From an uncultured candidate division Zixibacteria bacterium (GTDB lineage: Bacteria; Zixibacteria; MSB-5A5; UBA10806; 4484-95), in the NCBI GenBank assembly GCA_963668625.2, contig CAXXKA010000010.1:32001-96000 (forward strand): 64,000 nt of DNA, written 5' to 3'. A model generated the notes under the pieces. The model was not told where the DNA came from. It was given only the letters and a program-made list of their open reading frames with translations, and searched no databases. A program made the translations under genes and the position numbers. Every line of letters begins with the position of its first letter. The first letter of the stretch is position 1. This document shows, piece by piece, positions 13,682 to 33,500 of this stretch.

Positions 13682-16600
13682 TTATTTTATTAACAGACAC
13701 CTTTTTGTTTCCGTGAAATTATTCGTAGTCATCTTATAAAAATAAATTCCGGATGATTGCTCGGCGGCGTTCCAATTTACGAAATGCGAGCCGGCCGGCA
13801 GGTAACCGGATTGTAGTGTCTCCACTTTTCTACCCAGTATATCGAACAATTCTATAGTTACTTCGCCCGGCTCGGGTAGAGTGAACGAGAACGTGGTCGT
13901 GGCATTGAATGGATTGGGATAGTTTTGCGCCAATGAGTAAGCGTGAGGCAAAACATTAGCGTCATCTATTCCTGTAGGAGGCTCGGAGATATAACATCCC
14001 CGACGTTGATTGTCGTATGCGCCACAAGGCCAATCGTTTTCATACAGACTCGATTGTGATTTGTAGTCGACAACCATAAGGTTGGCCGCCTCGGAGGAGT
14101 ACGTAGCGAAGACGATTTCGAGATCGCCGTCACCGTCCAGATCACTAATAGCCGGAGCTCCCCTGACCTCGCCGAGGTTTTCACCGCCTATGGGGAAATT
14201 GGATACCAGCGAGCCGGTATAATCATATGCATAGATCAAACCGCTCGTACATCCAACTATGATATCTTTGGTTCCGTTGCCATCAATATCAGCTACGACA
14301 GGGCTGGATTTTATATTCTCACCGCATTCAATCGGGAAATTATTGATTTCTTCACCGTTCAATCCAATAGCGTGAATGTGCCTGGCGTTATCGACCACTA
14401 TTATTTCCGGTAAGAAGTCGTGGTTTATATCGGCAACAATGGGATAAATGATCACAGTCTGATTCAGATCAACCGGGAAATTGGGAAATACCGAGCCGTC
14501 TGAAGCTACAGCGTATATTTCTCCCTGCGAGGTGACTGCCGCGATATCGTACACCATATCTCCATCCAAATCTCCGGAGGTAGCCGAGGCGTAAATAGGG
14601 TTACCCAGATCGACAGGGAAACCTGTCGGGTAGTTGCCATTAGAATTCCAGGCGTGTAAGTGGGAGTCAAGGCCGGCAAAAATTAGCTCCCTGATACCAT
14701 CGAAATCGATTTCGGCTGCGATGCCGCTACTGAACCATCCCGAACCGCCTGAGATTGGCGACCAATCGAATTGTGTGCCGTCATGCCGGATGACGTAAAT
14801 TTCACGATTCGACATACTGGCGACTACGATTTCCAGATTACTATTACCATCGATATCCATAAGCATTGCGCCACCGAATATCGTTCCATCTATATCTATC
14901 GGGAAACCGCTCATGGCTGTGCCATCAGCTTCCCAGGCGTACACATAGCCATCTTTGGAACCAACCGCGATCTCGTATGCGCCGTCGTTATCGATATCAC
15001 CGATAGCAGCGCCACCGGGGATATTCCCGGATACGCTCTGAGGCCAGCCGGCACAATTCGAACCATCAGCCTCCAACGCGTAGAGGTAACCGTCATTGGC
15101 TCCGACTATGATTTCATTATCGCCGTCACTATCGAAATCGAACACCAGTGGGCTCGATTCGATATTGCCGCCCAGGTCAATCGGGAATCCTGTTTGATCG
15201 AGAAATACATCGACCGTCACGGTCATCGTTTCGATGAATATATCTGAGGCGTACATATCTATATCGATATTCCAACTACCGGGTCTTAAATCTTCGCCTA
15301 CGGTGAAATTAAACGGATCGGAGCTGTTATTCCTGACCTGGTTGCTCGGAATATCTCCGAATTCAGTGGTCGAATCATTGGCAGTGAAATACTCATTACT
15401 ACGAGCGATTGCCGTAACATCAATGGCATCGGCCCATATATTTTGAATGGTAATCGAAAGATCGAAAGATTCCCCGGGATTGAGTATGTTATCACCATCA
15501 TCCTCGGTGATAGTTATTACCGAGGAACGCATGTTGAAATTCGGCAAGCTATTAGAGGCCAGGGCCGTATAGGCGTTTATTCTGCCGTACCCCAGAAGGC
15601 CATTATAATCCGGATTCAGGTTATCGATAGGATCGGCTGTCGTATAAATCCTGTCGATTATTTCCGATCTTTCGAGATCCGGCTCGGAGGATTTAATCAA
15701 ACCCACTAAACCGACTACGAATGGCGCGGCCATCGAGGTACCCTGGAGCACCGAGTAAGCGTCATCGAAGTAAGTCGAATTGATGCTGATTCCGGGAGCA
15801 CATACATCAACCCAGACGCCATAATTAGAGAAACTGGTTTTCAGGTCGCTCTGGTCGGTAGCTGCTACAGAGATGACATCAGTCCTCGTTCCCAGGTAAG
15901 GCGCGGAACTGGTACCATCATTACCGGCAGCCGTGATTACGACAACACCTTGTTCTACGGCATAGTCTACGGCATCGCGAAGGTAATTCGCGTAGGATGA
16001 CCCCCACGAGCAATTAATGGCCGCTGCTCCCTTATCCGCGGCATACACGAAAGCCTGCGCGGCAAAATCCATCCTGACATAAGTATTACCATCGGAATGA
16101 CGCCAACCGATTCTGAGGCACATTACCTTGCAGTCGAAACCAAGCCCGGCCACGCCGACGCCATTGTCGGTACAAGCTGCGGCAATACCGGAACAGTGGG
16201 TACCGTGCCCGTCGAAATCCATCGGATCGTTATCAGGAGTGCTATAGTCCTCACCCGGATAGCCCGGGACACCTGTTACCCAGTCCCAGCCGATATGATC
16301 ATCAACCAGACCGTTATCATCGTTGTCTGAACCGTCAATTGGATCATCAGCATTATGCCATATATCATCCGCCAGATCGGGGTGGTCCCAGTCAACGCCA
16401 CTATCGGCGATTGCCAGAATTACCTCCGAGCTACCCTGATTGACATTCCAGGCGTTCTCGGCCTCGACTTTAGTCAAACCCCACTGCGAACCCAGTGAGG
16501 GATCATTTGGCGTGTAATAAACCGGCTGTAATGGTACTGGTTCAACTGAATCAATCTCCCGGAGAAGCTGATAGTCGTTAATCGCGCTTTCTAGATTTAC

Positions 16601-16912
16601 CGGTTGGTTGAACGTAACCGAAAAATAATTCGAAAGCTCCGGCATGCTGCTTTTCTCGGATTTCGGGAAAAGCTGTGCTACCATGGTAACACCTTTCTGA
16701 GCATTGAGTTGATCGAATGCCGTTATCCCTGTAACGAGTGAATTTTGCTCGTATGCGATAGCCGCCGGTTTATTATCCGATGAGAATTGGACAATAAGAC
16801 AGTTATCTGCCAGGGTTTCGGTATCGTATTGAACACCGTTGACAGTTAAAGGCGCAGCCATCGCCCATGAGCATAGTACGATAGCCAGAATGGCCGTGTA
16901 GCTAAATTTCAT
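13682..16912 (-). CDS. Secreted S8 subtilisin-like serine protease with FG-GAP repeats and T9SS-type CTD
   Basis: Catalytic triad IADSG / HGTHCSG / GTSMAAP, repeated 'GFP....SSP...D.D.DG', and CTD QNYPNPFN...SGIYFY. Confidence 0.92.
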   Translation of the reverse strand: MKFSYTAILAIVLCSWAMAAPLTVNGVQYDTETLADNCLIVQFSSDNKPAAIAYEQNSLVTGITAFDQLNAQKGVTMVAQLFPKSEKSSMPELSNYFSVTFNQPVNLESAINDYQLLREIDSVEPVPLQPVYYTPNDPSLGSQWGLTKVEAENAWNVNQGSSEVILAIADSGVDWDHPDLADDIWHNADDPIDGSDNDDNGLVDDHIGWDWVTGVPGYPGEDYSTPDNDPMDFDGHGTHCSGIAAACTDNGVGVAGLGFDCKVMCLRIGWRHSDGNTYVRMDFAAQAFVYAADKGAAAINCSWGSSYANYLRDAVDYAVEQGVVVITAAGNDGTSSAPYLGTRTDVISVAATDQSDLKTSFSNYGVWVDVCAPGISINSTYFDDAYSVLQGTSMAAPFVVGLVGLIKSSEPDLERSEIIDRIYTTADPIDNLNPDYNGLLGYGRINAYTALASNSLPNFNMRSSVITITEDDGDNILNPGESFDLSITIQNIWADAIDVTAIARSNEYFTANDSTTEFGDIPSNQVRNNSSDPFNFTVGEDLRPGSWNIDIDMYASDIFIETMTVTVDVFLDQTGFPIDLGGNIESSPLVFDFDSDGDNEIIVGANDGYLYALEADGSNCAGWPQSVSGNIPGGAAIGDIDNDGAYEIAVGSKDGYVYAWEADGTAMSGFPIDIDGTIFGGAMLMDIDGNSNLEIVVASMSNREIYVIRHDGTQFDWSPISGGSGWFSSGIAAEIDFDGIRELIFAGLDSHLHAWNSNGNYPTGFPVDLGNPIYASATSGDLDGDMVYDIAAVTSQGEIYAVASDGSVFPNFPVDLNQTVIIYPIVADINHDFLPEIIVVDNARHIHAIGLNGEEINNFPIECGENIKSSPVVADIDGNGTKDIIVGCTSGLIYAYDYTGSLVSNFPIGGENLGEVRGAPAISDLDGDGDLEIVFATYSSEAANLMVVDYKSQSSLYENDWPCGAYDNQRRGCYISEPPTGIDDANVLPHAYSLAQNYPNPFNATTTFSFTLPEPGEVTIELFDILGRKVETLQSGYLPAGSHFVNWNAAEQSSGIYFYKMTTNNFTETKRCLLIK

Positions 16913-16914
16913 TA

Positions 16915-17253
16915 CTACTCCTTATTCTCGTATAATCTGAAAATGTGCGTATAATCATCGTAATCAAGTATTGCCTTAATGATAGTACTATGTTCAGGTC
17001 TGTGCCTTACACCGAAAGATTTTTTATTCTCGTGAGATCTACGGTTTTCTTGCCCTACCTGATTGGTTTTTTCATTGTTGTGCCTTGCCGTAATAATATA
17101 GCTGAAGATGTTGGAATCTCCTCTGGCATTCACGAAATTTCTGCTGGAATTTTTACTGAAATCCCTATCAGCGGCCTGTATTTGATCGATCGCCAGAAAT
17201 GACATGATAATAAAGGCCATCACCAATATCAACATTACTTTTCTAAAGTTCAT
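16915..17253 (-). CDS. Small exported hypothetical protein, translationally coupled to the S8 protease
   Basis: RBS AAGGAGG, signal peptide ending IQA, stop codon 2 nt before the protease ATG. Confidence 0.65.
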   Translation of the reverse strand: MNFRKVMLILVMAFIIMSFLAIDQIQAADRDFSKNSSRNFVNARGDSNIFSYIITARHNNEKTNQVGQENRRSHENKKSFGVRHRPEHSTIIKAILDYDDYTHIFRLYENKE

Positions 17254-17780
17254 GTTTCTCCTCCTTAATCGGATATCATGTTTAATTAAGCGTAAAAATT
17301 AACAATTTTAGTGAAATATTTACAATTGACATGAAAAACTATTAGAGTTTCGCTTAAGGCCGACCGCATAAAACAAGTTTTTATAGCACATAATCACCCT
17401 AATGGTCTAGTATATGGCTTGTTTTATATGACAATAATTTGCAATACGGTGAATAGATTTGTAAGTCTATTTATGTTGTTACATAAACGATTATGCTTGC
17501 TATTTCATGGACTCTGGGCTATATTGTATTAGATGTAAGTGTTAGTTCTTTTACGTCAGGGTTAGTGCTTGAAATGTGCGTAATCCGGTTTTGAAGTTGA
17601 TGTTGTATTCTTGTTGTATTGTTATTCTTAATCAAACTCCATTTAGTTTTTTTCATTTCAGGCGTCACTGTAAGCAGGGACTGATATTTTTTATGAATTT
17701 TGCGCAAAAAGTTGTTAATTTTTCAGCTAGGGTGAGGCCTTAAATAAATTAGCACTCCCTTGCTGATTTCTGGAGCGTGA

Positions 17781-18446
17781 ATGATGAATACCCCAGACAA
17801 TCTTAGCGATCGCGAGCGGGCAATGCGTAAAGAGCTGGCTCAACGTACGGTTAATGTCAGCAGTAGCGATATTTCCGAGCGTGAGGCGGCCGCGGATTCC
17901 CCGGAGCTTATCGAGATTGGGCGGCAAATAACCCGCTTGATCGAGGAAGAGCTTCTGGAGGATGCCTCTGATATGTTATATAAAAGCCTCAAAAAACACC
18001 CCGAAGAGTTAATGCTGCTCAATTTTCAGATGATATTAGAAAGCCTGAAAAAGAAATTCGGTGATTATACCGAGGCTAAACAAGCAGGTTTGAAGCTGAT
18101 CGAGATGGCGGCTATCAAGAAGAATCCCTACTATACCATGGTCGCCGTAAACAATCTCGGGATAATAGCCCACAAGGAGGGCCATGAGGATTACAGCCTG
18201 GCGATGTATTTAGCTGCGCATTATATCGATGACACCGCGCTATTTACATTGTGTAATCTAGCAGGATGGTATTCGCGAAAAAACGATCTCGAAAAAGCGA
18301 TGTACTGGATCAAGCGGATCATTCGGACTAAAGAAAGCTGGAACAAGGATGAGGAGATAGTGAGTTTTTTAAAGAAAGACGAATCTTTACACAACCTCAG
18401 GACTTTTGACATATTTATAAATGAGATTCTCTCAAAGATCGAATAA
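17781..18446 (+). CDS. Cytoplasmic TPR protein (no HTH, no signal peptide)
   Basis: TPR-like helices VNNLGIIAHKEG and CNLAGWYSRKNDLEKAMYW; C-terminal 'D.SL.NLR..F' end-of-group motif. Confidence 0.75.
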   Translation: MMNTPDNLSDRERAMRKELAQRTVNVSSSDISEREAAADSPELIEIGRQITRLIEEELLEDASDMLYKSLKKHPEELMLLNFQMILESLKKKFGDYTEAKQAGLKLIEMAAIKKNPYYTMVAVNNLGIIAHKEGHEDYSLAMYLAAHYIDDTALFTLCNLAGWYSRKNDLEKAMYWIKRIIRTKESWNKDEEIVSFLKKDESLHNLRTFDIFINEILSKIE

Positions 18447-18480
18447 TAATTAATTTAAATAAAGAAGGAGGTATGTCCTC

Positions 18481-18711
18481 ATGCGTAATTATCAAATGGC
18501 GCTTTTCGGATTTTTCTTTGGATTTTTTCTCATGTTCGGATTTAATCCGAGTTTTAATTTCGATCCCGGTTACGGTGATGATGTCTGCAGGAATGCTACG
18601 ATTGGCAGTATGCATCCTGTCGGCGAGAAATTCGGCGGCGGTGTAAAAATCGCTGATTTTAATGGTGGTAATGAAGTAGACATTGAACCAACAGGTCCTG
18701 GCGGTAATTAG
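18481..18711 (+). CDS. 76-aa secreted propeptide (Phr/PapR/AimP-like architecture)
   Basis: Strong RBS AAGGAGG 9 nt upstream. Basic N-terminus, hydrophobic core ALFGFFFGFFLMFGF, and a polar tail with three Gly-Gly-ending segments. Confidence 0.65.
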   Translation: MRNYQMALFGFFFGFFLMFGFNPSFNFDPGYGDDVCRNATIGSMHPVGEKFGGGVKIADFNGGNEVDIEPTGPGGN

Positions 18712-18745
18712 GCCTAAACTTTTTAACGCCATACCTGGAGGAGTG

Positions 18746-19498
18746 ATGAGAAGGAACCCGCGTCTAGAGAATAAAATCCGGATCGATATACAACTTTGGT
18801 TAGACTCTAAGGGAACCGATTTTATTATTTGCATAAAAGAATTTTGTCAGGGAAACAGGGCTGCATTGAGCCAGGTGTTGGAATTCGTCGATGAACTGGG
18901 CAGAAACGTATTTGTCGGTGATGGTAACACGCTCGATAAAGAGCTTTTGGAAAAACTCGAATATGGAATATTCGACTTGATCGGCAAGTTCAATAGTACT
19001 CCCGGAGGAGAAGCTCTGGAAGAGGCTATCGAAAAAAATATCGTCGAGTATCTGACAGCTATTTTCACTGAAGCTAAAAAAGAATGGAATCTGAATCAAT
19101 ATAAAATTACGGCGTCGTATGAAGAACTCGATCCCAATAACAGCACTATCCCCGCGGACCAGAAACCGGTAGATCAGATTGACTCATCCGAGCAAGTACC
19201 GGAGAGAAAGTATACCCGCAAGGATGCCAGGCTGTTTTTGGATGAGCTGGTGGCTTTTGCCAAAACCAGGCTCAGGGGAGAGAAAAATAAAGTTATCGCT
19301 GTTAAATGGCTGGAAAATCCCGATCGCCAGAAAGACTATAGCTGGCTGGCGACACTCACCGATTCCAGCACGGGAAGTATAAAAGTCACCTTGACTCGCC
19401 TTAAGCAAACCCTGAACAAGAACTATTCATTGAGGTACGTGAATGACAAACTTGTTATGAGCAAGGTGGACATGGTGGCTAAATCGCACCCGACTTAG
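18746..19498 (+). CDS. Divergent sigma-70/ECF-like regulator
   Basis: RBS GGAGG before ATG 18746. C-terminal DYSWLATLTDSSTGSIKVTLTRLKQTL resembles the sigma region-4 HTH; QGNRAALSQVL resembles the ECF N-terminal G....AF..L. Confidence 0.55.
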   Translation: MRRNPRLENKIRIDIQLWLDSKGTDFIICIKEFCQGNRAALSQVLEFVDELGRNVFVGDGNTLDKELLEKLEYGIFDLIGKFNSTPGGEALEEAIEKNIVEYLTAIFTEAKKEWNLNQYKITASYEELDPNNSTIPADQKPVDQIDSSEQVPERKYTRKDARLFLDELVAFAKTRLRGEKNKVIAVKWLENPDRQKDYSWLATLTDSSTGSIKVTLTRLKQTLNKNYSLRYVNDKLVMSKVDMVAKSHPT

Positions 19499-19602
19499 TA
19501 TAAAATATTAGTAAGTAGTAAGTTAGAAAATAATATAGCATTTCTCCGGCAATTACCAGCCTGTCTATTCATAAAACTTTGTGAAAAAAGTAACATTATT
19601 TC

Positions 19603-19631
19603 TTGACAAACTATTTAAATGAGTTTATTTT
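19603..19631 (+). promoter_or_regulatory. Sigma-70 promoter for the leader/TonB operon
   Basis: TTGACA (19603-08), 17-bp spacer, TATTTT (19626-31). Confidence 0.55.
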
Positions 19632-19652
19632 GTTAGGAGAGGCTAATAAAAT
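19627..19652. promoter_or_regulatory. Palindromic operator, DtxR/MntR-like (TTAG-N6-CTAA)
   Basis: ATTTTgTTAG-gagagg-CTAAtAAAAT overlapping the -10/+1 region. Confidence 0.5.
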
Positions 19653-19679
19653 TAGAAATGTAAAACAATAAGGATAGCT

Positions 19680-20042
19680 GTGAACAAGAGTATCTTTGAA
19701 AAACTTGCAGTAATACTGGCGCTCTATACGGTTATTTTTATTTTTTCACTTACCTTCAATCTTCATTTTCATCAATTACCCGATGGTCGCTATGTTATTC
19801 ATAGTCACCCTAACAATGATTCAAATAAAAGCAGCGGGCAAAAGCATGATCATACGAGTCGCGAATATGTCTCGATTGGCCCGGCTAACTCGGTATTTTC
19901 GGCAATCCCTATCTTGACTACTAATATCGTAGCGATATCTATTTATAATGAATTTATTCTTATTGAACATACAATCGAATTTGAAACCACCTCGATGTTT
20001 TTAACTCGTCTCTGGCGTTCTCCTCCTCATGCATCTATCTAA
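19680..20042 (+). CDS. His-rich DUF2946-like leader protein with C-terminal RSPP motif
   Basis: N-terminal TM, HFH..HSHP..HDH cluster, ending WRSPPHASI directly upstream of a TonB receptor. Confidence 0.65.
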   Translation: MNKSIFEKLAVILALYTVIFIFSLTFNLHFHQLPDGRYVIHSHPNNDSNKSSGQKHDHTSREYVSIGPANSVFSAIPILTTNIVAISIYNEFILIEHTIEFETTSMFLTRLWRSPPHASI

Positions 20043-20132
20043 TCGTTTTTCTAATAGTACTAATAAGTAAATAGATGAACCCTGTAAGCAGTTTTCAGTC
20101 ATGAATGAGCTTGCAGAAAACAGGAGGATAAG

Positions 20133-22526
20133 ATGAAAAGCAGAAAATTGCTTTTGTTGTTGATGTGTGTCGTAGTTTTCGGAGTTATCGATGTAAACGC
20201 CGGTCAAATTAGCGGCACGGTACTTGATAAGAATACAGGAGAGGGATTAGCCTGGGCTACTGTTCAAATCGAGGGTACATATAGAGGAGCCCGCACAGAT
20301 GAGCATGGCCATTTCACGATTATGGATGTGCCGGATGGCAAACAGAAGGTTATAGCCTCGATGATAGGCTACACTACAGCCGCCGAGGATATCGCCGTGG
20401 TGGGGGATGTACCAGGGATAGAGTTTACACTCAAAGAAACGCCCCTCGAAACCGGTGATGTCGTGGTGACCGGTACCCGTACACCCAGGTATGTCAAAGA
20501 GGTGCCCGTGCTTACCGAGGTAATCACCAGAAAATCGATTGAGGATAAAGCCGCGCATAACCTGTACGAGGTACTCGATGGCTCACCCGGCGTTAGGGTC
20601 GAGCAGCAATGCCAGGCCTGCAATTTTTGCGTGTTGAGACTTCAGGGGTTGGGAGCTGACCATACCCAGATACTATTGGATGGTCAACCCGTCTACTCCG
20701 GGTTAGCATCCGTATATGGTCTTCAACAGCTTGGTACCGAGGGCGTCGAACAGGTAGAGGTAGTCAAAGGCGCGGGTTCTGCTCTTTACGGCAGTAACGC
20801 TATCGCCGGCGCTATTAATATAGTCTCGGCCATACCGCAGAAAACAGAGGGCAAAGTTGGTCTCGAGATGGGCGAACACGGTACCAACAAGTACAGCCTC
20901 TACGCCGGAACAAAAAAGAACAATGTAAGTATTTCACTTTTCGCTCAGCAGGATCAGGGGAATATCATTGATGAAACCCGTGATGGTAACACCAGAGATG
21001 AGGTATATGAAAGCGATGGAATCAGTGACAGGGTGAGAACCAATAATAAGAACCTCGGATTTAATCTATATGTCGATGATCTCACCGGGACCGATCAACT
21101 TACATTTAAAGGACGGATAATAAGCGAAAACCGTCAGGGCGGAGAAATCACAGATGATCTATTCGAAAATATTTTCTCCGCCGGTACCGAGCGTATCGTT
21201 ACAGACAGGTACAGTGGGGAACTGGGATACTGGAAGCAGTTTGTTTCAGGAACGCAGCTTGAAACCAGTTTATCGTATACACTTCATAAACGAAACGCCA
21301 CCAACGATACATTCCTGGGTGACTATCAGGCTACTCATGATGATGCTCTTCCCCCGGTCAGCGAGTTAAGGCCGTATATAGCGGAGGAGGATCTTTACGT
21401 AGGAAATTTAAACATCATCCACCCGCTGGGCGGCGGCCATCGCTTACTGGCAGGTTTACAGGTTGCGCATAACAATCTCGATGAGTCAGGCAAATATGTC
21501 GTAGTCGATGAAGAGGATGACAATTACGGCGTTTCTTATACGTCCTCGAGCAGCAAGAAAGCCAACGATTTCGGCGTGTATATTCAGGATGAATACAGCG
21601 TTACCGATAAGGTTGAGTTAGTTGGTGGCGTAAGATATGACTATCATAAGTCCGAGGACAGTTTCCATGGTTCCGGCAATGTATATCCTGATGGTGTAGA
21701 GCCGGTCGAGTATGATGAGTCGGCCGTAAATCCCCGGTTCGCATTAAAATTCGATGCTACCAGTGAGCTTACTTTTCGTTTGAATGTCGGTACCGGGTTC
21801 AGGGTACCCTACGGTTTCTCCGAGGATCTCCATCTTTGCAGCGGTTCACCTCGAGTTTATAAAGCCGGTAATTTGAAACCCGAGAAATCCTATAGCTACA
21901 GTGTCAGCGCCGATTATATTATCGACGACATAGACCTGAGTATAAATCTATATCGCACCGAGTTGAAAAACGCCATCTCATTCACGGATGCCGATGAGGA
22001 AGTCACCGCTTTAGGCTATGATTACCAGTGGAAAAATATCGACGATGCTTACGTGATGGGAATAGAGTTAGGCGGCCAGTTCGGTTTAACCAGGAATCTG
22101 GCTTTGATGGCTGACCTGGCATTCAATAAGGGGGAATACGACAATGTCCGCGAGGATTGGGTTGGAACTCAGTATGAGGATGACAGCAAGTATATCTCAC
22201 GCTATCCCAATCTCGATGCCGGTTTAAAATTGGATTTCTCTCCGCGCCAGTGGAATTTCATCGTAGATGCCAACTACAAAGGCAAGATGTACATTGATTA
22301 TTTCGCGGATGGCGAAGAGCCTACCAAAATCAAGAAAACCGAATCTTACGTGATCGTTAACGCAATGATTTCCAAAACATTCTTGGATACCTATAAACTT
22401 TACTTGGGTGCGAAAAATCTTTCCGATTACATTCAGGAAGAGAAACACGCTGATGATGCCGCTTTCATGTATGCTCCCGTATACGGTAGGATAATTTACG
22501 GAGGGGTGCAGGTATTCATCAAATAA
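20133..22526 (+). CDS. TonB-dependent receptor, probably for metal uptake
   Basis: Carboxypeptidase-regulatory-like N-terminus, TonB box VVVTGTRT, plug with CQACNF, VEVVKGAGSALYG..AIAGAINI, EDLHLC. Confidence 0.92.
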   Translation: MKSRKLLLLLMCVVVFGVIDVNAGQISGTVLDKNTGEGLAWATVQIEGTYRGARTDEHGHFTIMDVPDGKQKVIASMIGYTTAAEDIAVVGDVPGIEFTLKETPLETGDVVVTGTRTPRYVKEVPVLTEVITRKSIEDKAAHNLYEVLDGSPGVRVEQQCQACNFCVLRLQGLGADHTQILLDGQPVYSGLASVYGLQQLGTEGVEQVEVVKGAGSALYGSNAIAGAINIVSAIPQKTEGKVGLEMGEHGTNKYSLYAGTKKNNVSISLFAQQDQGNIIDETRDGNTRDEVYESDGISDRVRTNNKNLGFNLYVDDLTGTDQLTFKGRIISENRQGGEITDDLFENIFSAGTERIVTDRYSGELGYWKQFVSGTQLETSLSYTLHKRNATNDTFLGDYQATHDDALPPVSELRPYIAEEDLYVGNLNIIHPLGGGHRLLAGLQVAHNNLDESGKYVVVDEEDDNYGVSYTSSSSKKANDFGVYIQDEYSVTDKVELVGGVRYDYHKSEDSFHGSGNVYPDGVEPVEYDESAVNPRFALKFDATSELTFRLNVGTGFRVPYGFSEDLHLCSGSPRVYKAGNLKPEKSYSYSVSADYIIDDIDLSINLYRTELKNAISFTDADEEVTALGYDYQWKNIDDAYVMGIELGGQFGLTRNLALMADLAFNKGEYDNVREDWVGTQYEDDSKYISRYPNLDAGLKLDFSPRQWNFIVDANYKGKMYIDYFADGEEPTKIKKTESYVIVNAMISKTFLDTYKLYLGAKNLSDYIQEEKHADDAAFMYAPVYGRIIYGGVQVFIK

Positions 22527-30527: not shown

Positions 30528-33500
30528 TCAAACGAATCATTCGGAAAATCTTCTCTGGTTTTTCCAGGAACGAGCTAAAGAGCTTAACTGTATTTACCAG
30601 ATAGAGGAGATACTGAACGAACCCGAGGCTGATCTTGAGAAAGTATGTAACGGTATTATCGAGGCCATACCTCCGGGCTGGCAATATCCTGATGTTTGCC
30701 AGGTGAAGATTCTCATTCACAGCGAGTGTTACAAATCGCCGGATTTCGAAGAATCTAAATGGCAGCAGAAAGCCGATATAAAAGCGCAAGATGAAAAGAT
30801 CGGTGAGATCGGTGTATATTACACCAAGGAGATGCCGACGGCGGATGACGGGCCGTTCCTCAAGGAGGAAACCAAGCTATTGCAGACTATCGCCGATCGG
30901 CTGGGACATTTCATAACATTTAAAATGATGCGCCAGGTATTTCGAGATTACAGGGTCGCCGAAAAGGAACTTCACGAAAACAAAATAGAGGAATGGCGAG
31001 TAATCGTGAACCTTCTCCAGAGAACCGACAAAGATCTATACGCAAACCTGTCTCGTAAAGTTTTTCACCTGCTCTGCTGGAGCGGCATCGAAGAAGCTAT
31101 TCAACTGCAAAAAGAGATCGATACGATAAGCGGCGTTTTGGAGGATGATTCGACCTCGGATGACAATCGTCCCGGCAAACGCGGTATGAAATATTTTACC
31201 ACCGAACAATGCGAACAGGTATTCACCATTGCCGCCCGTCATCTGAGCAACGAGCAATTGCTGGCGAATATCCAGAAATGGATGCAGGAGGATAAGCTCG
31301 GTTTCCTGATGAAGGTAGTTAACCGCAATCTCTCGCTGGCCGAGGTTGCCGACGCGCTAAGACGCTACTACCATATCGATCCCGAGGGCAAGGAATTACC
31401 CGAAGTCAACGGCAGGGGAGTCACGGTTTCGTTAACCAGGCGTTTTCTATCCGGGCAGCTTAATTTTATTAATGTAGCCAAACAGTATTTGCGCGTGAGT
31501 GATTTCTATAAACTGGTTGATAAGATTCTATTCCTGACCGAGAGCCACGGTAAATTGGGCGGCAAAAGCGCCGGATTGATTTTAGCCCAGCAGATTTTGC
31601 AAAACTCCGATGAGTATACAGAGCAATTAAAAAATATCAAAGTACCTAAAACCTGGTATATTTCCTCCGATGTTTTACTCGGTTTTCTGAGTTATAACGG
31701 TTTGGATGAGGTCGTAGAGCAAAAATATAAAGATATCAACCAGATCCGTCTGGAATATCCTCATGTAGTCCAGACATTCAAAAACTCGCGCTTTCCTCCG
31801 GAGATAATAAACGGTCTTTCGATGGTGCTGGATGAGCTAAGCGATAAGCCGCTAATAGTGCGAAGCTCCAGTTTACTCGAGGATCGTATGGGGGCTGTTT
31901 TCTCGGGAAAATATAAGAGCTTGTTTATCGCCAACCAGGGCACCAAGAGCCAACGGCTGGAGGCATTAACCGATGCTATTACGGAGGTGTACGCCTCGAT
32001 ATTCGGCCCCGATCCGATCGAATATCGGGCCGAACGCGGTTTACTGGATTTTGCCGAGGAGATGGGGATCATGATCCAGGAGGTGGTTGGCAATAAAATC
32101 GGCGATTACTTCCTGCCCTCGTTTGCCGGCGTAGCGTTTTCTCGCAATGATTTCCGCTGGTCACCGCGAATTCGTCGTAGCGATGGCTTGCTGCGCTTAG
32201 TACCGGGCCTGGGAACCAGAGCGGTCGATCGGGTCAGTGACGACTACCCGGTGCTTATCGCTCCCGGGCAGCCGGGATTACGCGTGAATGTCACCGCCGA
32301 TGAGGTAGTGCGGTATTCGCCCAAGAAAATAGATGTGGTAAATCTCAAGACAAACAAGTTCGAGACCGTGAAAGTGAAAACCCTTCTGAAAGAAATTGGC
32401 GAGGAGATACCCGGTATCACGAAAATGATATCCTCATTCGACGGCCACTCTTTAAACAGGCCGCAGCTATTGAATCTCGATTTCGAAAAGAATAATTACG
32501 TGATCACTTTCGATAGTTTGCTGGGAGATTCGGGATTCGTAGAACAGATTCATGCCATGTTAAACGTGCTGGAAAACAAGCTCGAAAACCCGGTTGATAT
32601 CGAGTTCGCCCATGACGGCAAAGACTTATACCTCCTCCAAAGCCGACCGCAAAGCTATTCACAAGACAGCGCTCCTTCACCGATACCCAAGGATATCGAG
32701 GAAAAAGATATCGTGTTTTCGGCAAACAAATATATATCCAATGGTCGCGTGCAGGATATCACGCATATCGTTTATGTCGATCCGGAACGTTACTCGGAAC
32801 TACCGGATAGGGAGACGATGCTTGAGATCGGACGGGCCGTGGGCAAACTTAACAAACTTTTGCCTCGAAGGCAGTTCGTGCTGATCGGTCCGGGGAGATG
32901 GGGCAGCAGGGGAAATATCAAGCTGGGCGTTAACGTTACCTATTCCGATATCAATAACACAGCCATGTTAATAGAGGTGGCTTTCCAGAAAGGCAACTAC
33001 CTTCCCGATTTATCGTTCGGTACACATTTCTTCCAGGATTTGGTGGAGGCCGAAATTCGCTACCTGCCGCTCTATCCAGACTCGGAGAAAGCTGTATTCA
33101 ATAACCAATTCATGGTCGATTCCGAAAACATCCTACCGATTGTTTTGCCCGAATATGAATATCTGGGTGACACGCTCAGACTCATAGATGTGAGTAAATC
33201 GACTGATGGTAAGGTGCTGAAAGTGCTTCTTAATGCTGATATCAACGAGGCGCTGGGCATACTGACGGAGCCTACGCAGGAACACGAGAAAACTGTTTTA
33301 CGGGATGAGGGTACGGTGATTAAAGGTGATAACTACTGGGCCTGGCGCTTGAAAATGGCAGAATACATCGCCTCACAACTGGATCCGCGACGTTTCGGCG
33401 TGAAAGATATATACGTATTCGGTAGTGTGAAAAACGCTACCGCCGGACCAGCCAGCGATATAGATATACTGGTGCATATCACCGGCGACAGCAAACAAAA

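Follow-up and report, generated by a model that had tools for sequence, protein, structure and literature searches.

A conserved three-gene cassette of Zixibacteria and the promoter-like motif that it shares with secreted-protease genes

Why should a diderm bacterium encode a tetratricopeptide repeat (TPR) protein, a small exported-type protein and a sigma-like protein in immediate succession? The question is raised by a stretch of 64,000 nucleotides (nt) from an uncultured candidate division Zixibacteria bacterium (positions 32,001 to 96,000 of contig CAXXKA010000010.1, assembly GCA_963668625.2; hereafter the window), in which an earlier note, made from the letters alone, had proposed a peptide-signalling cassette. 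The three open reading frames (ORFs) that it described, the two intergenic gaps of 34 nt each and the ribosome-binding sites, AAGGAGG ahead of the small ORF and CTGGAGGAG ahead of the third gene, were all reproduced at exactly the same coordinates. The mechanical ORF of the third gene opens at TTG 18683, and its length of 250 amino acids (aa) is counted from ATG 18746. The genes and the motif that precedes them, scored with the position weight matrix (PWM) described below, are as follows.

17713..17729, + strand: promoter-like motif TGTTAATT-N5-GCTA, 68 nt upstream of the TPR start codon; PWM score 21.1 bits, exact pattern match at C10:49713-49729
17781..18446, + strand: TPR gene, 221 aa, cytoplasmic, with a conserved N-terminal helix (ERERALRKEL.KRT) and the asparagines N81, N125 and N159 (from ORF, model and conservation)
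18481..18711, + strand: small-protein gene, 76 aa, with a hydrophobic segment at residues ~7-21, a variable linker, an E-K-F-G-G-G-V-K motif (GGVK at 53-56) and a variable acidic tail
18746..19498, + strand: sigma-factor-like gene, 250 aa, with a four-helix N-domain (5-118), a disordered conserved linker (~119-156), a region-4-like helix-turn-helix (154-226) and then a beta-hairpin

The genome of the window, G000, comprises 4.3 Mb in 10 contigs; C-numbers denote contigs, L-numbers loci, and g and f genera and families.

On balance we lean towards the view that the operon encodes an autoregulated sigma-like factor serving part of the type IX cargo regulon; its partner in the cytoplasm would be the TPR protein, its input the small exported protein, and the operon would probably switch a set of secreted enzymes on and off. 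The cassette would then be a lineage-specific, self-regulated transcription module of Zixibacteria. We propose that the third gene encodes a highly divergent member of the sigma-70 family, resembling the extracytoplasmic function (ECF) factors, which would initiate transcription at promoters of a class of its own, TGTTAAYT-N5-GCTT with an A/T-rich stretch behind it; with this motif ahead of its own operon the factor would be subject to positive feedback, and with the motif also ahead of a few dozen other genes it would serve mostly type IX cargo, including many proteases and, in this genome, the neighbouring S8 subtilase operon. The TPR protein would bind the sigma-like protein, likeliest by clamping a conserved extended segment in an Asn-lined groove, and would either hold it inactive or assist it, and the small exported protein would provide the input signal via a conserved G-G-h-K motif.

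A conserved operon and its promoter-like motif

Our set of 41 genomes consisted of that of the window and 40 same-class relatives. The TPR gene and the third gene each occur in 16 of the 41, the identical 16, from families f1, f2 and f4, and in these they are always adjacent, 283-436 nt apart. We inspected 52 locus entries (the window, relatives, and genome and metagenome contigs), many of them redundant and two without DNA upstream of the third gene; in all of the 50 that hold such DNA the gap is filled by a same-strand ORF of 60-111 aa, nearly always preceded by GGAGG. The order of receptor and then small gene, on which the earlier note relied, is thus strictly conserved, and the small secreted-type ORF is absent from no informative locus. 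The trio is a genuine conserved operon.

Upstream of the operon a motif of the class TGTTAAYT-N5-GCTT is found in 27 of 27 distinct loci, 49-100 nt before the TPR start codon. It is part of a larger block in which an A-tract is followed by TGTTAA[CT]T-N5-(G)CTT and then by an A/T-rich stretch; in the window this block spans ~17705-17742. One locus, L017 (G001:C62:96901-97216), carries two tandem copies on the cassette strand, ~300 nt apart. A hairpin in the 5' leader before the TPR gene is clade-specific (z < -2 in 2/27): a strong hairpin of 9-10 bp directly before the TPR ribosome-binding site, with z down to -3.3, is seen in a g10-like clade (L056, L057, L058, L044, L025) and not in other clades. 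Rfam has no match within 16800-20200, and a simple scan for sigma-70 promoters and terminators gave nothing above the shuffled level.

The motif recurs across the genome. A PWM built from the cassette-locus sites finds 31 sites of at least 16 bits in G000 compared with 1 in the shuffled genome, and 25 compared with 1 at 18 bits or more. The spacing is specific as well: TGTTAAYT-N5-KCTW occurs 37 times in G000 at spacing 5, as against 3-10 times at spacings 2-4 and 6-9. Twenty-one of the 31 PWM sites lie within 125 nt of a downstream start. Two of the 31 belong to the cassette and the S8 operon; 24 downstream ORFs were scanned with Pfam, and five sites, with no ORF or with a short or distant one, were left unscanned. 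At 12 of the 31 sites Por_Secre_tail, the type IX sorting domain, is found in the first downstream ORF, the S8 protease being the second gene of its operon and additional to these. As G000 has at least 150 listed Por_Secre_tail matches among 229 candidates, we estimate the background at no more than ~6% of genes, and the enrichment behind the motif has a binomial P of ~1.5e-7. The proteases among the targets in G000 are two C25 peptidases and one each of C1, M6, M28, aspartyl and S8 type; the other targets comprise beta-helix and LVIVD proteins, two transposase genes, a methyltransferase and a megaprotein with kinase, TPR, GAF and AAA+ domains. Among weaker sites (12-16 bits) the sorting domain was found in 7 of 11 ORFs, a biased sample picked by hand for a long ORF nearby. 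The pattern extends to another genus: in G009, 15 non-self pattern matches lead to 10 downstream ORFs, and the eight that were scanned after dropping two of 62 and 96 aa comprise four with Por_Secre_tail, two C25 peptidases cut by the end of the stretch and two housekeeping genes that are probably chance matches.

One of the sites lies next to the cassette itself, facing the divergent protease operon.

17288..17304, - strand: second motif copy TGTTAATT-N5-GCTT, 51 nt upstream of the 112-aa ORF; PWM score 20.7 bits (C10:49275, minus strand), exact pattern at C10:49288-49304, minus strand
16915..17253, - strand: ORF of 112 aa with a signal-peptide-like N-terminus, heading the S8 protease operon behind the second motif copy
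13682..16912, - strand: Peptidase_S8 subtilase, 1076 aa, with FG-GAP repeats and a type IX secretion C-terminal sorting domain (Pfam), divergent from the cassette

The S8 subtilase is a probable member of the regulon in the window's genome. That a secreted protease might be the target had been suggested in the earlier note, and for this genome it was a good guess, since the cassette, the S8 operon and many other secreted-protease genes carry the same promoter-like motif. The S8 gene adjoins the cassette in G000 and in the same-genus G001 only; in G001, unlike in the window, no exact-pattern copy faces it. The 112-aa ORF has a weak counterpart in L018 only.

Three further groups of sites deserve description in their own right. 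At C6:473637-478769 (L084, L085, L098) stand three tandem paralogous genes for type IX cargo, each a beta-helix protein of ~550 aa with a motif of its own (19.9, 19.9 and 13.4 bits), so that the promoter was apparently duplicated together with the gene. Two Mutator-family transposase genes (C1:539204 and C1:93380; L069, L072) lie 150-210 nt downstream of motif copies of 25.6 and 22.8 bits. The megaprotein (C6:906805-912093, L078), 1732 aa with Ser/Thr kinase, AAA_16, TPR, GAF and sigma-54-activator parts, has a motif of 21.5 bits 82 nt upstream; we considered it as a partner of the cassette and rejected it, as full-length orthologues occur in f1 and f2 with or without the cassette.

Motif abundance follows the presence of the cassette across the relatives. 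The exact pattern TGTTAAYTNNNNNGCTW was counted in the 41 genomes with the reversed pattern as control:

16 cassette genomes: 156 pattern matches, 37 reversed-control matches, median 6.5
25 genomes without the cassette: 20 pattern matches, 39 reversed-control matches, median 1

Genus g3, which belongs to the window's family and has no cassette, shows 0 pattern matches, yet 46 and 75 sorting-domain matches.

The third protein and the reader of the motif

The family of the third protein is small and anonymous. It falls into 54 clusters at 90% identity, none of which bears a functional name. A profile search of 1.84 billion representatives returned nine proteins; in one of these, of 5137 aa, the match covers short repeated stretches. 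The family occupies 15 loci in 185,579 species genomes, eight of them in Zixibacteria and the other seven in the same-class relatives G002, G003, G006, G011, G017 and G034 and at L035, with a small ORF closely matching that of G034. No relatives were found on viral contigs.

In the model, the N-domain (5-118) consists of four helices predicted with confidence (pLDDT ~90), the linker is disordered and yet conserved (K120 and S124 invariant, E127 and P130 at least 90% conserved), and the C-domain is made of four helices and a hairpin. With Foldseek, ECF sigma chains (sigmaE, AlgU, SigH and SigL; ranks 3-4 and 5 and 7 include second chains of the AlgU and sigmaE entries) take ranks 1, 3-7 and 10 at E 0.02-0.14; these alignments run over ~200 columns and both domains, and the first seven rows have probabilities of 0.72-0.89. 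The VIA fold search gave Z 6.0-6.5 for residues 20-128 to region 2 of SigI6, ShbA, SigW and sigmaE, and Z 5.9-7.5 for residues 150-245 to the region 4 domains of several sigma factors. The nearest named clusters of the ESM Atlas carry Sigma70_r4_2, r4 or r2, which we take as leads only. Csm2, the best match of a profile search of the PDB (E 0.026), was judged to be chance. The sigma region-4-like helix-turn-helix read from the sequence by the earlier note therefore holds in that the C-terminus aligns with region 4.2 and the model is ECF-like in both domains, and the scores behind it are modest. We consider it likely that the third protein is a factor of the sigma-70 family; as such it would read the motif and act as a sigma subunit of the polymerase.

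Several observations weigh against this view and against the module proposed above. In sequence comparisons the third protein has no Pfam match; TIGR02937 gives E 0.036 and 13.7 bits against a cut-off of 42.9 (NCBIfam); hhalign against the nine canonical ECF sigma factors of its own genome aligns region 4.2 only (P 0.003, probability 10%), and profile searches found no bridge from the family to canonical sigma factors. In fold comparisons all Foldseek matches stay above E 0.001, and the VIA Z values are of a size that the tool calls common. The geometry of the motif is unusual, too. An ECF consensus consists of a -35 element (AAC-type) and a -10 element (CGT-type) 16-17 nt apart. Here the conserved boxes lie ~10.5 bp apart from centre to centre, with 7 nt between TGTTAA and GCT (5 after TGTTAAYT), about one helical turn shorter. 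In the comparison across genomes the relatives are not phylogenetically independent, each cassette genome has at least one match by construction because the pattern was derived from cassette loci, and in family f2 the excess of pattern over control is small (3 against 5 in G011, 5 against 5 in G017 and 0 against 1 in G020). Nor is the regulon conserved gene by gene: none of 12 loci with homologues of a motif-bearing C25 gene (eight from G001, G005 and G006, which have the cassette, and four from G004 and G008) has a site of at least 12 bits by PWM, and the three closest homologues in cassette genomes have promoters of the TTGACA-N17-TATTAT type, which indicates that ordinary promoters in this group look canonical, unlike the motif. 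Finally, binding of the TPR protein to the sigma-like protein and to the small protein is conjectural. The third gene is also not among the 19 matches of a sigma scan of its own genome.

Some of these points would suit a third protein that is an ordinary DNA-binding activator or repressor, its helix-turn-helix sitting on the TGTTAAYT box in promoters read by another sigma factor: sequence gives no evidence for region 2, many winged-helix and Lrp/AsnC regulators that are not sigma factors fit the C-domain at an equal VIA Z of 6-7, and the spacing of the boxes is unfit for sigma-70-family geometry. Against such a regulator stand the Foldseek alignments to ECF sigma factors across both domains, and in several targets the motif ends 15-30 nt ahead of the start codon, leaving no room for a separate core promoter downstream; moreover, no conserved -35-like hexamer was found upstream of the motif. 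We regard an ordinary regulator as unlikely, if worth keeping in mind.

The motif might also bring to mind sigma-54, whose promoters have GG at -24 and GC at -12 (TGGCAC-N5-TTGC). Set in that register (T1 G2 ... G14 C15) the motif reads TGTTAA, without the GG and without TT ahead of the GC. Cassette or no cassette, 40 of the 41 genomes have rpoN, and G000 contains canonical TGGCAY-N5-TTGC sites. The spread of the motif over the relatives is therefore not accounted for by sigma-54, which we rejected as its reader on this ground and for the missing GG. The canonical sigma-54-type sites of G000 (for example C5:128007, C5:108424 and C10:228257) tend toward TGGCAY-N5-TTGCTTTATAAA, the A/T-rich part of which resembles the stretch after the GCT of the motif.

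An alternative is to see in the motif a -10-type element (TG-n-TAATTT) with a conserved start region behind it. The distance from the motif to the start codon is 36 nt at C3:30450, with a ribosome-binding site at positions 25-30, and 26 nt at a weaker site, which would be leaderless under a -24/-12 reading; these shortest distances do not decide between the -24/-12 and the -10-type readings.

The TPR protein, the small protein and the input

The TPR protein has a hydrophilic N-terminus and its model is made throughout of TPR-like helices (pLDDT 87, pTM 0.83), arranged as four helix pairs and a capping region behind an N-terminal helix that is less confidently predicted yet conserved. Full-length homologues have 220-242 aa, and no fused or longer forms were found, which is weak evidence. 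Pfam TPR_12 matches under the cut-off (E 0.0016). Three asparagines, N81, N125 (in NNLG) and N159 (in CNLA), are at least 90% conserved among 27 homologues, and in the register that we assigned they occupy position 6 of the A-helix in three successive repeats. The description of a cytoplasmic protein of 221 aa with Asn-bearing repeats is thereby borne out. Position-6 asparagines of A-helices line the peptide groove in O-GlcNAc transferase (OGT) and in RRNPP receptors; an arrangement like that of this groove suggests that the TPR protein holds a ligand in extended conformation, the identity of which is not given by the asparagines.

The small proteins, 31 distinct sequences from the 50 loci, range over 60-111 aa and align poorly overall (mean column identity 21%); that of the window matches no Pfam or NCBIfam family. 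Among 14 close pairs pN/pS runs from 0.14 to 0.51 in 13 and is 0.95 in the last, which has few changes; with values mostly well below 1, the small ORF is a real, fast-evolving gene. A strongly hydrophobic 15-mer at the N-terminus is present in all 31 (mean Kyte-Doolittle 1.7-3.0); in the 76-aa protein of the window it comes with a polar tail, as the earlier note had read. K or R precedes the hydrophobic core in 14 of 31, and a single one of the 31 has a net positive C-flank; three sequences of genus g2 (109-111 aa) have a textbook n-region and an A-x-A-like site, clear sites of this kind being confined to g2. Based on this charge pattern and on the textbook signal peptides of g2, the tail is probably exported. 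The proteins share a core motif, E-x-[LF]-x-G-G-[VIF]-K, in the forms G-G-[VIF]-K (15 of 31), GLPK (3), DG[SGA]Y..KK (6) and looser ones (7). It begins at residue 48-56 in 24 of 31, ~30 residues past the hydrophobic segment, and is followed by a variable tail of 2 to 21 residues. The occurrence of C25 peptidases in the putative regulon suggests, quite speculatively, that the Lys/Arg after Gly-Gly is a maturation site.

It is at this point that signalling of the RRNPP kind, as envisaged in the earlier note, has to be weighed. Sec would export the small protein, which would then be cleaved outside the cytoplasm, possibly by a gingipain-like C25 peptidase of the regulon at the Lys/Arg after Gly-Gly, and a G-G-h-K fragment would be re-imported by an oligopeptide permease, bind the TPR groove and release or activate the sigma-like protein. 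The cassette resembles Rap-Phr, NprR-NprX, PlcR-PapR and AimR-AimP in that a cytoplasmic TPR gene is directly followed by a small Sec-type gene and secreted proteases are putative targets, the last in parallel with the PlcR and NprR regulons. The gene order is kept in all loci (with the 34-nt gap in the window), the hydrophobic N-terminus is universal and in g2 of textbook quality, the conserved core motif lies near the C-terminus of the small protein, the three position-6 asparagines are where a peptide receptor would have them, G000 has one OppA-like gene, and C25 peptidases stand behind the motif in both G000 and G009. The cassette differs from these systems in that its receptor has neither a helix-turn-helix nor detectable homology to theirs, the host is a diderm of the FCB group and the output is a separate sigma-like protein.

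Further comparison is less favourable. The available excerpt of the published RRNPP signature (PMC10075063) gives a propeptide of 10-100 aa, secretion by Sec (SignalP) or PptAB, a receptor of 250-500 aa with TPRs, and adjacent genes; of these five computational marks three are found here, namely the small propeptide (76 aa in the window), the TPRs and the adjacency, and the receptor, at 221 aa, lies under the published range. The TPRs are recognised by fold, as the Pfam E of 0.0016 would fail the detector's E < 1e-5 stated in the same excerpt (PMC10075063). The TPR protein has no sequence match to any RRNPP family in Pfam or NCBIfam. Its Foldseek matches are generic TPRs such as consensus TPRs and OGT, with no RRNPP receptor among the 49 listed; in the VIA search the anaphase-promoting complex (APC/C) subunit Cut9 (Z 15.4), OGT (15.1) and kinesin light chain (14.8) stand high, and PlcR-PapR (Z 12.6, rank 29) and phage Rap (Z 12.4, rank 35) lie below many unrelated TPR proteins. 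In the comparison with RRNPP folds that the note had called for, PlcR and phage Rap thus fit no better than dozens of unrelated TPRs. In addition, no type IX sorting domain is present in the small protein, so that in a diderm it would stay in the periplasm, apart from the surface proteases. The note had suggested looking for three-gene synteny with co-diversifying peptides; the synteny is kept, and the core motif is largely conserved between genera, unlike pherotypes. Taken together, we find RRNPP-like signalling rather improbable. The fuller reading, in which the cassette is a peptide-gated TPR/sigma switch in a diderm and the first circuit of RRNPP logic outside Bacillota, with an orphan sigma-like factor acting on -24/-12-like promoters over a type IX protease secretome and a propeptide matured at Gly-Gly-x-Lys/Arg by the regulon's own proteases, seems to us highly doubtful.

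A switch coupled to export is a further way in which the three proteins might be connected. Within the cytoplasm the TPR protein would act as chaperone of the small hydrophobic protein until the latter is exported post-translationally. The supply of free TPR protein for the sigma-like factor would then depend on the export rate, so that cargo would be made in keeping with export capacity. Proteins of 60-111 aa would be fully translated before co-translational targeting engages, and the regulon is made of exported proteins. In size and in being almost all TPR the protein is like IpgC of Shigella, a class II type III chaperone with 3.5 TPRs in the available excerpt (PMC10701871), and IpgC and MxiE control genes that respond to secretion activity (PMC3299695, likewise in excerpt). 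As far as these excerpts go (PMC3299695, PMC10701871), the Shigella circuit and the cassette both combine a small all-TPR protein, a small exported protein and a factor over genes for secreted proteins. The likeness is one of analogy and not of homology: the cassette would have a Sec-type signal and type IX cargo instead of type III secretion, and a sigma-like instead of an AraC-type factor. No type III chaperone is among the 50 fold matches listed, and nothing points to a stay of the small protein in the cytoplasm. SicA-InvF, ExsACDE (ExsC-ExsE) and FlgM-sigma28 are further circuits coupled to secretion activity. That the cassette works in this way we think quite improbable.

It is conceivable, too, that the small protein is no signal at all. 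It could be (a) an accessory of the protease regulon in the periplasm or membrane, such as a self-protecting inhibitor, for which co-expression with proteases would be fitting, or (b) an export-monitoring leader peptide like SecM, MifM or VemP, whose conserved motif would stall the ribosome and so adjust how the sigma gene behind it is translated. Arrest is favoured by the constant position of the core motif relative to the hydrophobic segment, and the small ORF ends 28-76 nt ahead of the sigma gene. Speaking against a leader peptide, no consistent structure covers the ribosome-binding site of the sigma gene (mean z -0.2; z < -2 in 1/26), and against either variant the protein matches no family of Pfam or NCBIfam; to our knowledge its motif resembles no known arrest motif or inhibitor family. 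We think it unlikely, on present grounds, that the small protein has no signalling role.

Outside the trio the neighbourhood is not conserved, and some of its variants may be recorded here. Downstream of the cassette in the window, a sigma-70-like match (TTGACA-17-TATTTT, 19603-19631) precedes a membrane protein of 120 aa with a His-rich stretch (19680-20042; weak HypB-prefix match, E 0.0013), after which comes a TonB-dependent receptor with a CarboxypepD_reg domain (20133-22526). The two look like a metal-uptake pair and are not kept beside the cassette in other loci. In G006 (L020:8516-9732) a pfs-like gene (PNP_UDP_1) and luxS, the pair for synthesis of autoinducer-2 (AI-2), lie ~0.9-2 kb upstream of the TPR gene, and in genus g7 the corresponding position is held by an ArsR-ArsP pair.

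Relation to known regulators and significance

By analogy the cassette works most like an ECF sigma factor with a dedicated regulator. It shares with the ECF factors (group IV), and ECF42 in particular, a fold of the region 2/region 4 type, its own operon behind the motif and a TPR module of ~200 residues. Autoregulation, a common mark of ECF factors, is reflected in the presence of the motif ahead of the cassette's own operon at every distinct locus (27/27), its reading by the third protein being what we infer. According to the available excerpt on ECF42 (PMC8999054), those sigma factors have a C-terminal TPR extension of ~200 residues that is essential for activity; there the module is fused, whereas in the cassette it is a separate protein encoded upstream. 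The cassette differs from ECF factors further in having no family match above threshold, an obligatory third gene for a small exported protein and boxes ~10 bp closer than their usual spacing, and the third protein has an extra N-terminal helix and an invariant FCQGNR motif.

What is known of the control of type IX secretion comes, in the excerpt available (PMC4800418), mainly from PorXY-SigP of Porphyromonas gingivalis, where a two-component system feeds SigP and SigP in turn acts on genes for parts of the secretion machine. In that system and, on our reading, in the cassette an ECF-type sigma factor is tied to type IX secretion; going by the same excerpt (PMC4800418), the cassette differs in that it would target cargo genes and has no kinase or response regulator. 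In a survey of titles and abstracts on type IX cargo promoters or sigma factors and on sigma factors of Zixibacteria we found no such cassette, motif or regulator of cargo genes. What is new in our analysis is the bipartite motif that links the cassette to secreted-protease genes.

If the proposed module holds true, a compact switch of three proteins would govern the protease secretome in an abundant uncultured phylum of sediments. Its sigma-like family would be invisible to current family models, and annotation pipelines would accordingly miss it, and its promoter would have a box spacing outside the rules of the sigma-70 family. The cassette is at the same time a well-defined candidate for the sensing of a peptide or of export by a TPR protein outside the Gram-positives.

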